From positions 1-42,110 of the IMG/VR virus record IMGVR_UViG_2541047875_000007: a stretch of DNA of 42,110 nucleotides, one strand, 5' to 3'. The notes beneath the pieces were generated by a model. The model did not search any database. It saw only the letters and a list, made by a program, of their open reading frames with translations, and was not told the origin of the DNA. The first letter of the stretch is position 1; each line of letters opens with the position of its first letter. Below, piece by piece: positions 5,367-42,110 of this stretch. The stretch is from a virus (taxonomy: Duplodnaviria > Heunggongvirae > Uroviricota > Caudoviricetes). The translations under genes were made by a program, and so were the position numbers.

Positions 5367-5434
5367 GTTGGTTTTTCTCCACGAATTTACTGACAACAGA
5401 AGCCCTGACTGTTCCCGCAGTTGGGGCTTCAACT

Positions 5435-32058: not shown

Positions 32059-32094
32059 TTGACTCAATAAAGTACAAATCGTACTATTTAGCCA
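32059..32094 (+). promoter_or_regulatory. PL promoter with overlapping OL operator (32072-32083)
   Basis: TTGACT - 17 bp - TACTAT, then ATCAGCAGGACGCACT matching the remembered lambda PL transcript start; operator GTACAAATCGTA in the spacer. Confidence 0.7.
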
Positions 32095-32125
32095 TCAGCA
32101 GGACGCACTAACCACCATGAAGGTG

Positions 32126-32156
32126 AGGCTCTTAAAAATTAAGCCCTGAAGAAGGG
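32126..32156 (+). promoter_or_regulatory. nutL: boxA (32126-32133, GGCTCTTA) and boxB (32142-32156, GCCCTGAAGAAGGGC)
   Basis: boxB identical to remembered lambda nutL boxB; boxA differs from CGCTCTTA at one position. Confidence 0.85.
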
Positions 32157-32340
32157 CGGCATTCAAAGCAGAAAGCTTTGGGGTGTGGTGAAGCTCAACG
32201 GCGAGCTAGGGAATAGTTTTGCGGTGAAGATTCTAGACAACTAACCGCAGGATGCGCGTAACCCAATCGGCAGCGCACCGATGGAAGCTGGTTCGACTCC
32301 AGCCACCACACCACCAAAGCTAACTGACAGGAGAATCCAG

Positions 32341-32667
32341 ATGGATGCACAAACACGCCGCCGCGAACGTCGCGCAGAGAAACAGGCTCAATGGAAAGCA
32401 GCAAATCCCCTGTTGGTTGGGGTAAACGCAAAACCAGTTAACCGCCCTATTCTCTCGCTGAATCGCAAACCGAAATCACGAGTAGAAAGCGCACTGAATC
32501 CGATAGACCTTACGGTGCTGGCTGAATACCACGAACAGATTGAAAGCAACCTGCAACGTATTGAGCGCAAGAATCAGCGCACATGGTACAGCAAGCCACG
32601 CAGTGAAATGGGTGTGACTTGTGTTGGTCGCCAGAAAATGAAATTAGGCAGCAAACCACTTATTTGA
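32341..32667 (+). CDS. N: Antiterminator N (lambda-type)
   Basis: From ATG 32341: MDAQTRRRERRAEKQAQWKAANPLLVGVNAKPVNRPILSLNRKPKSRVESALNPIDLTVLAEYHEQIES... matches lambda N including the Arg-rich motif. Confidence 0.95.
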   Translation: MDAQTRRRERRAEKQAQWKAANPLLVGVNAKPVNRPILSLNRKPKSRVESALNPIDLTVLAEYHEQIESNLQRIERKNQRTWYSKPRSEMGVTCVGRQKMKLGSKPLI

Positions 32668-32675
32668 GGTGATAT

Positions 32676-32864
32676 ATGGAACGTAAATTTGAAATTTGGT
32701 TGGATTCCGGCGCAAACATTCATTCTTGCAAAAAGACAGTTGTAACACTCGATGATCTTGGCTTATCCGAGAATGAGTGGAATGAAATGGATCAGGACGA
32801 AAAAGACGAAAACATGCGTGATGTAGCATTTGAAACGCTTGATTGGGGATGGAAGGAAATTTAA
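32676..32864 (+). CDS. Hypothetical acidic protein (62 aa) immediately downstream of N
   Basis: ATG with GAGGTGA upstream; no family recognised. Confidence 0.6.
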   Translation: MERKFEIWLDSGANIHSCKKTVVTLDDLGLSENEWNEMDQDEKDENMRDVAFETLDWGWKEI

Positions 32865-32869
32865 GTGAT

Positions 32870-32895
32870 GGCCGCATAGTCGGCCTTTATTTTTG
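32870..32895 (+). terminator. Candidate intrinsic terminator in the early-left operon
   Basis: GGCCG-CATAGT-CGGCC followed by TTTATTTTT. Confidence 0.5.
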
Positions 32896-32916
32896 GCATA
32901 AACAACAGAGGCTAAC

Positions 32917-33213
32917 ATGGAATTTAAAGGTACTGAAGGTAAGTGGGAAATAATGATGGATGGCGATGAGATTAAAATCATCCAGGCAGACTCACTTGAA
33001 AATGGCGCAGGCTGGCGTTCGTATATTGCAATCTGTGAGGAAGTTCAATGCATTGAAGATGCCAATCTAATAGCGGCAGCACCTGACCTTCTCGAAGCAC
33101 TTCAGTTATTACTTAAGCAAACCAAAAATAGAACAACGACAACATATCCAGAATGGTATGGAGCTGTTAATAAAGGTCTCGCAGCAATAAGAAAAGCTCT
33201 TGGGGATAAGTAA
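32917..33213 (+). CDS. Hypothetical protein (98 aa)
   Basis: ATG with AGAGG upstream; no family recognised. Confidence 0.6.
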   Translation: MEFKGTEGKWEIMMDGDEIKIIQADSLENGAGWRSYIAICEEVQCIEDANLIAAAPDLLEALQLLLKQTKNRTTTTYPEWYGAVNKGLAAIRKALGDK

Positions 33214-33401
33214 TGAAAGTAAAAATAACTGCTTCTAATACCAGTTTTGTTAGTGTTGGTGATATTACAGAAGTAATAACAAACCATGATGGAACACAAG
33301 TTATGTGGTCTGATTTTTGTAAAAGATATGAGCGAGTCACTTGGTGTAAACTCGTATGGGGCGTCGAATACGAAGAATTACCTGAAATGCATGACGAATA
33401 A
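33213..33401 (+). CDS. Hypothetical protein (62 aa)
   Basis: Start overlaps the preceding stop (TAATG). Confidence 0.55.
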   Translation: MKVKITASNTSFVSVGDITEVITNHDGTQVMWSDFCKRYERVTWCKLVWGVEYEELPEMHDE

Positions 33402-33404
33402 GCA

Positions 33405-33432
33405 CTGTGTATTCATTCCAACGAGTGAATAC
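33405..33432 (+). repeat. Perfect 9-bp inverted repeat with 10-nt loop
   Basis: GTGTATTCA-TTCCAACGAG-TGAATACAC read directly from the sequence. Confidence 0.5.
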
Positions 33433-33496
33433 ACGGAGCAATGTCGCTCGTAACTAAACAGGAGCCGACTTGTTCTGATTATTGGAAATCTTCTTT

Positions 33497-33521
33497 GCCC
33501 TCCAGTGTGAGGGCCTTTTTA
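33497..33521 (+). terminator. Candidate intrinsic terminator upstream of the cIII-like gene
   Basis: GCCCTC-CAGTGTG-AGGGC followed by CTTTTTA. Confidence 0.55.
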
Positions 33522-33586
33522 TATGCATACCAATAACGCTTCACTCGAGGCGTTTTCGTTATGCAATCAAACAGAAGGAGCATCCT

Positions 33587-33757
33587 ATGCAACAGTTCGC
33601 TATTGCAGGGGCGGCATCGGTTCGCCCTTTCAACCCGATTTTATCGGTACAGCATTCACGAAAAAATATTTTAACCGGAGCAGACTTTAAACAACCAAGA
33701 ATGAAAAGTTTGCTCGAAAAGATTTGGGATATTTTGAAACAACAAGGCCGTCCATGA
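33587..33757 (+). CDS. Possible CIII-like protein (56 aa)
   Basis: ATG 33587 with AAGGAG 6 nt upstream; MQQFAIAGAAS...SLLEKIWDILKQQG weakly resembles lambda CIII (MQYAIAG...SLLERI...DILNQPG) at the expected map position. Confidence 0.45.
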   Translation: MQQFAIAGAASVRPFNPILSVQHSRKNILTGADFKQPRMKSLLEKIWDILKQQGRP

Positions 33758-33912
33758 GTTTTACAGATAACTGTTCAGACGAAGAATTCATTCGTCAGAT
33801 GAAAGAATTAATCGGTAACGAAGGAGATATTCATGTCACTTGCAACCACAGTGAAGGAGAGCAAGTTACAGAGGCGCATGTACACGCAGAAAGCTCTCTG
33901 GTATCGCCATAA
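33754..33912 (+). CDS. Hypothetical small protein (52 aa), coupled to the preceding gene
   Basis: ATG 33754 overlaps the previous stop (ATGA). Confidence 0.4.
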   Translation: MSFTDNCSDEEFIRQMKELIGNEGDIHVTCNHSEGEQVTEAHVHAESSLVSP

Positions 33913-35808: not shown

Positions 35809-36102
35809 ATGCCAGCGCCTCTGTATGGTGCGGATGACGCGCGCCGCTGTTCCGGCAATTCCGTATCGGAGGTGCTGGATAAATTCAGGAAAAACTACGA
35901 CCGGATAATGTCGCTACCGCAGGAAACGAAAGAGGAAAAGGAATTTCGCCATTGTATATGGCTTGCAGAGAAAGAAGAACGCGAGCGAATTTACCAGACA
36001 TCAATCCGACCATTCCGCAAAGCCACATATACCCACTTCCCTGAAATTGACCCGCGCCTGCGTAATTACCGCTCACGCTATGGCGCTATCAGTAATGACT
36101 GA
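35809..36102 (+). CDS. Hypothetical protein (97 aa)
   Basis: ATG with GGAG upstream. Confidence 0.55.
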
Positions 36103-36277: not shown

Positions 36278-36711
36278 AACAAATGTCACTAATTGAGATG
36301 GATGGTTTTCTGAAAGGTAAATGCATCCCACGAGATTTAAAGGTTAACGAAACAAACGCTGAATATCTGGTGCGTAAATTTGCTGAAGCGGAGGCCAAGT
36401 GCGCGGCGCTGGCTGCTGAAGTTGAGGCTGTGAAATCAGCACATCAAGATGCTGTAAACACCATCATGTATACCGCCAATCGAACGGGTGTTTTATACAC
36501 AGAGAAGGCAATTCAAATGTCCTGCAAAACCCCGGCCACCGATGCTTTCCTGACTGAAGTCCGGGCTAAGGCGTTTGATGACCTTTGCGCGGCGTTCGTT
36601 AAGCACGCGTCGGTGTCCGGGCTGGACGATGGCGACTGCGTTACGGTGAAAGAGGCGACTGACGCCCTGCTGCATTGTGCGGAACAGCTTCACAAGGGAG
36701 TGCATTCATGA
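36274..36711 (+). CDS. Hypothetical protein (145 aa)
   Basis: ATG 36274 overlaps the previous stop (ATGA); GGAG upstream. Confidence 0.55.
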
Positions 36712-36941
36712 GCAACCTACTACCATGTCCATTCTGTGGCGGTGCAGCGCACGTTGCCAGCGAAGCAGATCACCCTGAATATGGCTCTGGCGGTCGATTC
36801 TATTTCGTTCGATGCGGTACGTGTCGCGCTCAATCTGGTAGCAAATATGCAGCGCCTGGAAATGACTGCGCGATTTTTTATTCAGAGGTTAGAGCAGAGT
36901 GGAATCAGCGAGCAAAGGAGGCAACCAGTGAGCAAGATTGA
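36708..36941 (+). CDS. Lar-family restriction-alleviation-like zinc-ribbon protein
   Basis: [12 protein letters not shown]...FVRCGTCRAQSG...AEWNQR fits the remembered Lar-family pattern; ATG overlaps the preceding stop. Confidence 0.6.
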   Translation: MSNLLPCPFCGGAAHVASEADHPEYGSGGRFYFVRCGTCRAQSGSKYAAPGNDCAIFYSEVRAEWNQRAKEATSEQD

Positions 36942-40134: not shown

Positions 40135-40335
40135 ATGCAACACGAACTACAGCCTGATTCACTGGTTGATTTGAAATTCATCATGGCCGATACTGGCTTT
40201 GGTAAAACCTTCATCTACGACCGGATTAAGTCCGGCGACCTGCCAAAAGCCAAAGTTATCCACGGGCGAGCAAGATGGTTATATCGTGACCATTGTGAAT
40301 TCAAAAATAAGCTCTTAAGCCGCGCCAATGGGTAA
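40135..40335 (+). CDS. xis: AlpA-family excisionase / DNA-binding regulator
   Basis: 66 aa; ...LKFIMADTGFGKTFIYDRIKSGDLPKAKVIHGRARWLYRD... HTH of the AlpA/Xis type; GGAG upstream; lies next to the att core. Confidence 0.75.
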   Translation: MQHELQPDSLVDLKFIMADTGFGKTFIYDRIKSGDLPKAKVIHGRARWLYRDHCEFKNKLLSRANG

Positions 40336-40862: not shown

Positions 40863-42110
40863 TTATATTGCTGAAGGTACTGGCGTTTCCATCACTATTT
40901 GCTCACGTTTTTTACTCAGGAAGAAAATGCCAAATAGCAACATCAGGCAGACAATACCCGAAATTGCGAAAAAAACCGTCTGGTAGCCTGCGTGGTCAAA
41001 GAGTATCCCAGTCGGCGTTGAAAGCAGCACAATCCCCAACGAACTGGCAATTTGAAAACCAATCAGAAAGATCGTCGACGACAGGCGCTTATCAAAATTT
41101 GCCACGCTGTATTTGAAGACGGATATGACACAAAGTGGAACCTCAATGGCATGTAACAGCTTCACTAATGAAATAATCCAGGGGTTAACGAATAGCGCGC
41201 AGGAAAGGATACGCAACGCCATAATCACAACACCGATAAGTAATGCATTTTTTGGCCCTACCCGATTCACAAAGAAAGGAATAATCGCCATGCACAGCGC
41301 TTCGAGTACCACCTGGAATGAGTTGAGATAACCATACAGGCGCGTTCCTACATCGTGGGATTCGAATAAACCTGCATAAAAGACAGGAAAGAGTTGTTGA
41401 TCAAAAATGTTATAGAAAGACCACGTCCCCACAATAAATATGACGAAAACCCAGAAGTTTCGATCCTTGAAAACTGCGATAAAATCCTCTTTTTTTACCC
41501 CTCCCACATCCGCCGCTACGCACTGGTGTTCCTGCTCTTTAAAACGCATGTTGATCATCATAAATACAGCGCCAAATAGAGAGACCAACCAGAAGTTGAT
41601 ATGGGGACTGATACTAAAAAATATGCCAGCAAAGAATGCGCCAATAGCATAGCCAAAAGATCCCCAGGCGCGCGCTGTTCCATATTCGAAATGAAAATTT
41701 CGCGCCATTTTTTCGGTGAAGCTGTCAAGCAAACCGCATCCCGCCAGATACCCCAGACCAAAAAAGAGCGCCCCCAGAATTAAACCTACAGAAAAATTGC
41801 TTTGCAGTAACGGTTCATAAACGTAAATCATAAACGGTCCGGTCAAGACCAAGATGAAACTCATACACCAGATGAGCGGTTTCTTCAGACCGAGTTTATC
41901 CTGAACGATGCCGTAGAACATCATAAATAGAATGCTGGTAAACTGGTTGACCGAATAAAGTGTACCTAATTCCGTCCCTGTCAACCCTAGATGTCCTTTC
42001 AGCCAAATAGCGTATAATGACCACCACAGCGACCAGGAAATAAAAAAGAGAAATGAGTAACTGGATGCAAAACGATAGTACGCATTTCTGAATGGAATAT
42101 TCAGTGCCAT
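40863..42110 (-). CDS. cscB: LacY-family oligosaccharide:H+ symporter, sucrose permease CscB-like (host gene flanking the prophage)
   Basis: 415 aa, 12-TM MFS protein; sequence recalled as CscB; the csc locus is known to lie near argW in sucrose-positive E. coli. Confidence 0.7.
   Translation of the reverse strand: MALNIPFRNAYYRFASSYSFLFFISWSLWWSLYAIWLKGHLGLTGTELGTLYSVNQFTSILFMMFYGIVQDKLGLKKPLIWCMSFILVLTGPFMIYVYEPLLQSNFSVGLILGALFFGLGYLAGCGLLDSFTEKMARNFHFEYGTARAWGSFGYAIGAFFAGIFFSISPHINFWLVSLFGAVFMMINMRFKEQEHQCVAADVGGVKKEDFIAVFKDRNFWVFVIFIVGTWSFYNIFDQQLFPVFYAGLFESHDVGTRLYGYLNSFQVVLEALCMAIIPFFVNRVGPKNALLIGVVIMALRILSCALFVNPWIISLVKLLHAIEVPLCVISVFKYSVANFDKRLSSTIFLIGFQIASSLGIVLLSTPTGILFDHAGYQTVFFAISGIVCLMLLFGIFFLSKKREQIVMETPVPSAI

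Follow-up and report, generated by a model that had tools for sequence, protein, structure and literature searches.

The genome of a tailed phage (Caudoviricetes) held as IMG/VR record IMGVR_UViG_2541047875_000007 carries, immediately after its lambda-type antiterminator gene N, three small open reading frames, ORF1, ORF2 and ORF3; the whole stretch analysed, positions 1 to 42,110 of that record (42,110 nucleotides, nt), is referred to here as the window. To judge from related loci, the three are independent, horizontally exchangeable mosaic cassettes and not the single unit as which an initial annotation of the window had treated them. As the evidence stands, the region is an ordinary, typical lambdoid accessory hotspot. 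We propose that counter-defence, exerted by stoichiometric early binding of host proteins, is the leading role for these genes, a tentative reading that we rate just short of an even chance. The case appears strongest for ORF1, for which it is plausible, since ORF1 replaces the lambda genes orf28 and ral; for the three genes together, an anti-defence role is a reasonable reading, to be taken as a candidate only.

The mosaic anatomy emerges from the alignment with lambda. Window positions 32093-32642 match PL, nutL and N of lambda, the sieB region being absent from the window, and positions 32651-32693 match lambda orf28 from its ribosome-binding site (the Shine-Dalgarno sequence) through the ATG into the first codons. 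The body of ORF1 (32694-32875) stands in place of lambda orf28 and ral (34340-34087), and the sequence found just after lambda ral resumes at 32876-32909, with the junctions of the ORF1 swap at 32693 and 32876-32882. From 32876 onwards, the 3' half of the hairpin that begins at 32870 is common to lambda and to prophages of the Ral type. ORF2 and ORF3 together (32910-33401) form an insertion between lambda 34055 and 34045. The following stretch (33402-33524) is 97.6% identical to lambda 34045-33923, which is the spacer between ral and ea10, and the hairpin at 33497-33522 is kept in that spacer in lambda; ea10 itself is absent. A sister prophage, JNE132847, carries orf28 and ral where ORF1 sits in the window, followed by identical ORF2 and ORF3. 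This variability was surveyed in the slot between N and ORF2 (equivalent to window 32668-32916) of 80 viral contigs carrying ORF2 (L059-L138), which contain at least 12 different cassettes at this place. The cassettes that could be named are ORF1, orf28 with Ral, a DUF7446 protein, an Nmad5 (PF18757) protein and a 285-amino-acid (aa) protein resembling SspD/DndC, and those without a family, six or more, encode proteins of 83, 107, 156, 140, 87 and 60 aa. Several unrelated cassettes are alike in their final codons (..KAA or ..EAA) and in their right junction, GGCCTTTATTTTTGGCATAAACAACAGAGGCTAAC, which suggests recombination at a conserved boundary sequence. The order and the co-occurrence of the three ORF families also vary among loci. 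Among 5,426 complete Escherichia coli genomes, ORF1 is found in 31 and the full three-gene block in four; DNA of ORF2, with or without ORF3, is present in 195, coverage of the query being 80% or higher in 60 of them.

The comparative data demonstrate, at the level of sequence, that the three ORFs are real protein-coding genes under selection. The layout is as the initial annotation described it, with three ORFs of 62, 98 and 62 aa after N, a spacing of 8 nt between the N stop and the ORF1 ATG (32668-32675), a hairpin followed by a T-run, and a TAATG overlap (33211-33215) of the ORF2 stop with the ORF3 start; a GAGGTGA Shine-Dalgarno sequence precedes the ATG of ORF1. The best PHROG matches have E-values of 2.5e-32 for ORF1, 5.2e-32 for ORF2 and 1.5e-45 for ORF3, and all three proteins have full-length homologues in other phages at identities spanning 42-70%. 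The ratio of non-synonymous to synonymous substitution (dN/dS, Nei-Gojobori), computed against distinct alleles, lies mostly between 0.04 and 0.5 for ORF2 and ORF3, with values of 0.07-0.46 for most ORF3 pairs, and is 0.42 for ORF1, where it comes from one usable close pair only. Strong profile matches, diverged full-length homologues and dN/dS values of mostly 0.1-0.3 together indicate that the ORFs are more than chance.

The description of the three as unknown genes held as regards function and was wrong in so far as families exist for all of them (DUF7167, PF27050 and PHROG 10407). ORF1 scores 34.7 bits against the Pfam family DUF7167 (cutoff 24.4), its residues 3-62 aligning with positions 1-58 of the 60 in the profile, and the identical protein is named 'DUF7167 family protein' in RefSeq. 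A WLDSGAN motif near the N-terminus and a (D/E)WG-aromatic motif near the C-terminus are kept in ORF1 and in full-length homologues at 42-60% identity. The 62 residues carry a net charge of about -10, which makes ORF1 a very acidic protein with an isoelectric point (pI) of 4.23, and its AlphaFold2 model has a predicted local distance difference test (pLDDT) score of 81. The DSGA within the first motif recalls the retropepsin-like aspartic proteases, whose beta-barrel fold takes up some 100 aa or more and has D-S/T-G-A in a psi-loop; neither fold nor size fits ORF1, and this candidate was rejected. DUF7167 homologues in P22-like prophages of Salmonella and Enterobacter always lie between N and the recombination genes. 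Further homologues occur in Vibrio phages of about 130 kb, one Aeromonas phage and one cyanophage, and sparsely in Betaproteobacteria. In P22-like prophages of Salmonella, the gene lying between N and the DUF7167 gene (L019, 2003-2932, + strand) encodes a protein of 309 aa in which CSAATNTG(D/Y) is repeated over a long stretch.

ORF2 belongs to a far larger family. Phage_P22_Y8K6 (PF27050) is the precomputed Pfam domain of the identical protein, and near-identical genes are named 'XkdD/Y8K6 family phage-associated protein' in RefSeq; our local copies of Pfam and NCBIfam gave no match for ORF2. A profile of the family matches P22 orf78 (E = 2.3e-12), BTP1 gp34 (4e-20) and KB57_029 of a Klebsiella phage of the Vequintavirinae (3e-17), and an exhaustive search with hidden Markov models retrieved 8,125 cluster representatives (clusters at 50% identity) with E <= 1e-3. 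Almost without exception, the top matches are stand-alone proteins of 85-125 aa aligned over their full length, and the few long matches, considered as possible domain fusions, proved to be repetitive and spurious. Conserved features are an N-terminal G-T-x-G-x-W, a helix with A-x-L-I-A-A-A-P-D/E-L-L-E-A-L and a C-terminal A-I-x-K-A-L-G; in the helix of 100 diverse members, L51 is invariant and I52, A54, A55, P56, L58, L59 and L62 are conserved in at least 90%. The AlphaFold2 model of ORF2 (pLDDT 72.6; pI of the protein 4.67) consists of three strands and a helical hairpin. At least three unrelated versions of the N-terminal beta region are joined to near-identical C-termini, and the version in ORF2 is the one also carried by virulent Klebsiella phages of the Vequintavirinae. 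A conserved scaffold with an exchangeable N-terminal module would fit a retargetable binder. An identification of ORF2 with P22 gene 17 was discarded, the protein being unrelated to gp17 and homologous to orf78 instead, which also lies in the P22 interval between ral and gene 17.

ORF3 (pI 4.82) aligns over its entire length with the profile of phrog_10407 (residues 1-62 on positions 1-62 of 62), and the C-terminal part of phrog_16117 matches it at 5e-19. The C-terminal domain of RB49p076 and of its Krischvirus relatives is homologous to ORF3 at 55-59% identity, and further homologues come from Aeromonas phages and from Salmonella phages of the 9NA type. A Y8K6 gene precedes ORF3 in 47 of 64 ORF3 loci, with the same 1-nt overlap in 46; of the ORF2 loci, about a quarter have ORF3 as the next gene. 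In 13 further ORF3 loci (L224, L230, L233 and ten others), the upstream gene is not Y8K6 but a 44-aa ORF (MNAVEFTKWMAEQD...ANALGGE), which has in common with Y8K6 only the C-terminal ALG(G/D)(E/K)-stop-ATG junction; ORF3 thus travels with the junction and not with the whole upstream gene. Diverged pairs of ORF2-like and ORF3-like genes also exist, and the DUF7167 gene can come after them. Small overlapping genes are characteristic of type II toxin-antitoxin systems, which typically combine an acidic antitoxin with a basic toxin. ORF2 and ORF3 do overlap, but both products are acidic and match no toxin-antitoxin family of Pfam or PADLOC, and this candidate was rejected.

None of the three proteins resembles the characterised products of the interval, as had been claimed from inspection alone. 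Profiles of ORF1 to ORF3 showed no similarity to Ral, SieB, gp17, Ea10, cIII or Kil in a set of 15 sequences, where the best values were E >= 0.16 for Ral of lambda and P22, E >= 1.7 for SieB and E >= 0.6 for gp17. No ORF has a Pfam match to Ral (PF11058) or GP17 (PF17420), none matches a defence model of PADLOC-DB at E <= 0.01, and the sole match in the Pfam, NCBIfam and PADLOC scans is that of ORF1 to DUF7167. Sequence searches of the Protein Data Bank (PDB) gave nothing significant, either with the single ORF sequences or with the 100-member ORF2 profile, and structure searches, for which ORF1 and ORF2 had been modelled, detected no informative fold match, no nucleic-acid-binding fold and no enzymatic fold. 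The profile and structure-based searches called for by the initial annotation thus returned no confident homology to known proteins with unrelated functions. Nothing relevant was found in the literature on DUF7167, PF27050, XkdD/Y8K6 and the PHROG families, and none of the ORF motifs is present in the supplements of an accessory-gene screen (PMC12373910).

The characterised genes on the PL strand of the interval between N and cIII are ral and P22 gene 17, whose products counter host or prophage barriers. Several observations lean towards a similar role for the three ORFs. Their products are small, soluble and acidic proteins shared by temperate and virulent phages, homologues of all three being present in the virulent Vequintavirinae, RB49-like phages and large Vibrio phages. 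ORF1 lies in a hypervariable slot that can hold Ral, with gp17 nearby, and the other recognisable occupants of this slot relate to DNA modification. We hypothesise that ORF1 to ORF3 would be repressed in the lysogen and made only upon infection or induction. In this phage, N and ORF1 would share a transcript that precedes the first terminator-like hairpin, ORF2 and ORF3 would need N antitermination for their expression, and translation of ORF3 would be coupled to that of ORF2. All three proteins, small, acidic and soluble, would act stoichiometrically, each by binding a host protein. ORF1 would provide a function of the anti-restriction type as an alternative to Ral, possibly via charge or DNA mimicry. 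In ORF2, often coupled to ORF3, the conserved helical hairpin could be the scaffold and the swappable N-terminal beta module could determine target specificity. The fuller proposal, in which DUF7167 is a new anti-restriction or anti-defence family replacing orf28-Ral and Y8K6/XkdD is a modular early inhibitor retargeted by its N-terminal module, we regard as doubtful.

A number of points weigh against a counter-defence role. The three families are catalogued, but no member has an established function, and the searches brought up no likeness of ORF1 to ORF3, in sequence, profile or fold, to known anti-defence proteins. The very breadth of the Y8K6 family argues against a narrowly targeted inhibitor. 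The 125 neighbours of distant Y8K6 genes are mixed early genes (ParB, DksA/TraR, RecT/Erf, N) and include no consistent partner; neighbour statistics therefore cannot separate the rival explanations, and roles in DNA metabolism or regulation fit equally. Acidity is not specific, as the 52-aa protein at the kil position shares it to the same degree. The proposed early timing of ORF1 is not a feature of the family: in relatives from Salmonella, a terminator-like site separates N from the DUF7167 gene. In the window itself, the hairpin at 32870 is of modest stability, with a z-score of only -1.65.

Among the alternatives, the one that survives best is that the ORFs encode modulators of development or host physiology which, like cIII, Kil and the small proteins of the exo-xis region, adjust host division, transcription or the choice between lysis and lysogeny early in infection; we consider it rather unlikely. 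The ORFs adjoin cIII and the kil-position gene in one operon, the distant Y8K6 neighbours include DksA/TraR-like and sigma-related proteins, and the literature has examples of such small early proteins in lambdoid phages (PMC9239242, PMC10869804, PMC7093339). Against this, homologues reside in strictly virulent phages, where no choice of lysogeny arises, and the slot of ORF1 is common to Ral, Nmad5 and an SspD-like protein, which are not regulators. An accessory role in DNA metabolism, in which the proteins would assist recombination, replication or modification together with the Rad52-like, SSB, exonuclease and Abc2 module, appears improbable. It would agree with the location of the ORF block directly upstream of that module, with the RecT, Erf, ParB, NinB, methyltransferase and Nmad5 proteins among the distant Y8K6 neighbours, and with one locus (L046) in which the DUF7167 gene is followed by an ORF resembling a methyltransferase, by eye only. 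The cassettes, however, assort independently of the type of recombinase (Rad52-like, Erf or RecT, depending on the locus), the structure searches brought up neither a nucleic-acid-binding nor an enzymatic fold, and all three proteins are acidic. Superinfection exclusion or defence expressed from the prophage, by analogy with SieB, is highly improbable: lambda and P22 do carry SieB in the equivalent interval and prophage hotspots often contain defence genes according to the literature, but sieB of these phages reads in the opposite direction from a promoter of its own, whereas the ORFs are co-oriented with PL, a pattern scan of 32676-33401 found no promoter-like site on the + strand, no ORF matches a PADLOC model, homologues occur in virulent phages, and the proteins are tiny, soluble and acidic. 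The exclusion function that the initial annotation had offered beside anti-defence is on these grounds unlikely, and the same two observations, no internal promoter-like site and homologues in virulent phages, argue for early, PL-driven action on host proteins. Other roles share a small remainder beside the counter-defence reading and these three rivals.

Coordinates of the three ORFs and of the features that delimit them in the window
Feature	Position	Strand	Evidence
ORF1, DUF7167 protein, 62 aa, in the orf28+ral slot	32676..32864	+	Pfam PF23768; phrog_8831
ORF2, Phage_P22_Y8K6 / XkdD-Y8K6 member, 98 aa	32917..33213	+	PF27050; phrog_1273
ORF3, PHROG 10407 member, 62 aa	33213..33401	+	phrog_10407
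Terminator-like hairpin GGCCG-CATAGT-CGGCC then TTTATTTTT, first downstream of N	32870..32893	+	pattern scan; -11.9 kcal/mol
Very stable perfect 14-bp hairpin, one base after the ORF3 stop	33402..33440	+	-21.9 kcal/mol, z -7.0
Terminator-like hairpin GCCCTC..GAGGGC with T-run, closing the ORF2-ORF3 segment	33497..33522	+	pattern scan; z -3.08
nutL boxB-type hairpin GCCCTGAAGAAGGGC	32143..32157	+	read from the sequence; lambda annotates nutL at the matching stretch
Antiterminator N, lambda type, 108 aa	32341..32667	+	Pfam N36 2.9e-25; phrog_271 9e-27
cIII-like gene, downstream limit of the accessory interval	33587..33757	+	phrog_550 CIII 2.2e-21

The surroundings of the three ORFs are those of a PL operon. 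A prophage in the chromosome of E. coli FDAARGOS_1256 is 100% identical across 901 bases around ORF1 to ORF3, and N of the identical prophage is labelled antitermination protein N in RefSeq. Along the + strand, a gene for a repressor of the LexA/cI type is followed by the nutL boxB, N, the three ORFs and the cIII-like gene, whose position is the same in relatives; after these come a 52-aa gene at the kil position, the gene of a Rad52-like annealing protein and then those of SSB, a 3'-5' exonuclease, Abc2 and a Lar-family protein. This order of repressor, nutL, N, ORFs, cIII and recombination genes on one strand identifies the + strand of the window as that of the 'leftward' PL operon of lambda; the nutL stretch is 84% identical to lambda 35583-35062. 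The initial annotation placed the ORFs at the position of lambda ral/sieB and P22 gene 17, which is correct for the interval between N and cIII; the slot of gene 17 itself comes after ORF3 and has no occupant in the window, where the conserved spacer hairpin adjoins ORF3 at once, a gp17 homologue being found directly after ORF3 in some relatives. The hairpin at 33402-33440 may serve in RNA processing or in termination as part of the tL2 region.

Some further features of the window were observed. The Abc2-type anti-RecBCD protein and the Lar-family restriction alleviation protein (35809-36102 and 36708-36941, + strand) are annotated counter-defence genes already present in the operon. The kil-position protein (33754-33912, + strand) has a net charge of -9 and matches phrog_2123, whose label 'recombinase' looks implausible for a protein of only 52 aa. 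In the N leader, between nutL and the N start (32283-32312, + strand), where the sequence differs from that of lambda, there is a T-arm-like GCTGG-TTCGACT-CCAGC followed by CACCACACCACCA; its interpretation as a tRNA or transfer-messenger RNA (tmRNA) was rejected, with no tRNA detected by ARAGORN and only a weak tmRNA-like match in Rfam (13.8 bits, E = 0.11). The Rfam sar RNA (RF00262) is found at 5367-5434 (+ strand) with 91 bits, the gathering score being 43, and marks an immI (ant) region of the P22 type, which identifies the phage as a hybrid of lambda and P22. Near the end of the window, an xis-like ORF (40135-40335) is followed by a long ORF on the - strand (40863-42110) which runs past the window end and looks, by eye only, like a membrane transporter; the succession places the prophage-host junction at about 40.4-40.9 kb, with no sign of an integrase ORF between these two ORFs.

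The stretch that follows N in lambdoid phages is a recombination hotspot in which DUF7167 is a direct allelic alternative to Ral. Y8K6/XkdD, with about 8,000 sequence clusters and a member in P22 itself, is nevertheless without an assigned function. ORF1, ORF2 and ORF3 are three concrete and cheap targets for anti-defence screens, and if any of them scored, many 'hypothetical' early phage genes would gain an annotation.

Comparison with known systems helps to place the three proteins. The C-terminal 55 residues of RB49p076 and PHROG 16117, hypothetical proteins of T-even Krischvirus phages, are homologous to ORF3; these proteins differ in having an additional N-terminal region of about 60 aa, and they belong to virulent phages with an unrelated genomic context. 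ORF2 is a member of the family of P22 orf78, BTP1 gp34 and PBSX XkdD, with the motifs of that family, and comes after the ral position as in P22 and BTP1, but the N-terminal beta module of orf78 and gp34 is unlike its own. P22 gene 17 (PF17420, GP17), which according to the P22 record 'allows growth on phage Fels2 lysogen', belongs to the same accessory interval of the PL operon as ORF1 to ORF3; gp17 is nonetheless unlike all three and is, in relatives, encoded by a separate gene downstream of ORF3. As regards ORF1, the small acidic inhibitors Ocr and Gp5.9 of T7 and Ugi of PBS2, which mimic DNA, offer a lead only. ORF1 has no sequence or fold similarity to them in searches of the PDB or BFVD, but its size and density of negative charge are comparable, and it too would act from an early, anti-restriction slot. 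Anti-restriction proteins of the Ocr/ArdA type imitate the DNA backbone through a high negative surface charge, and no such mimic matched ORF1 in fold. The closest parallel is with Ral itself. The two sequences are dissimilar, Ral having four cysteines and ORF1 being very acidic with its WLDSGAN and DWGW motifs, yet both are small proteins of the PL operon, and ORF1 occupies exactly the slot which in lambda is that of orf28 and Ral (PF11058, restriction alleviation).

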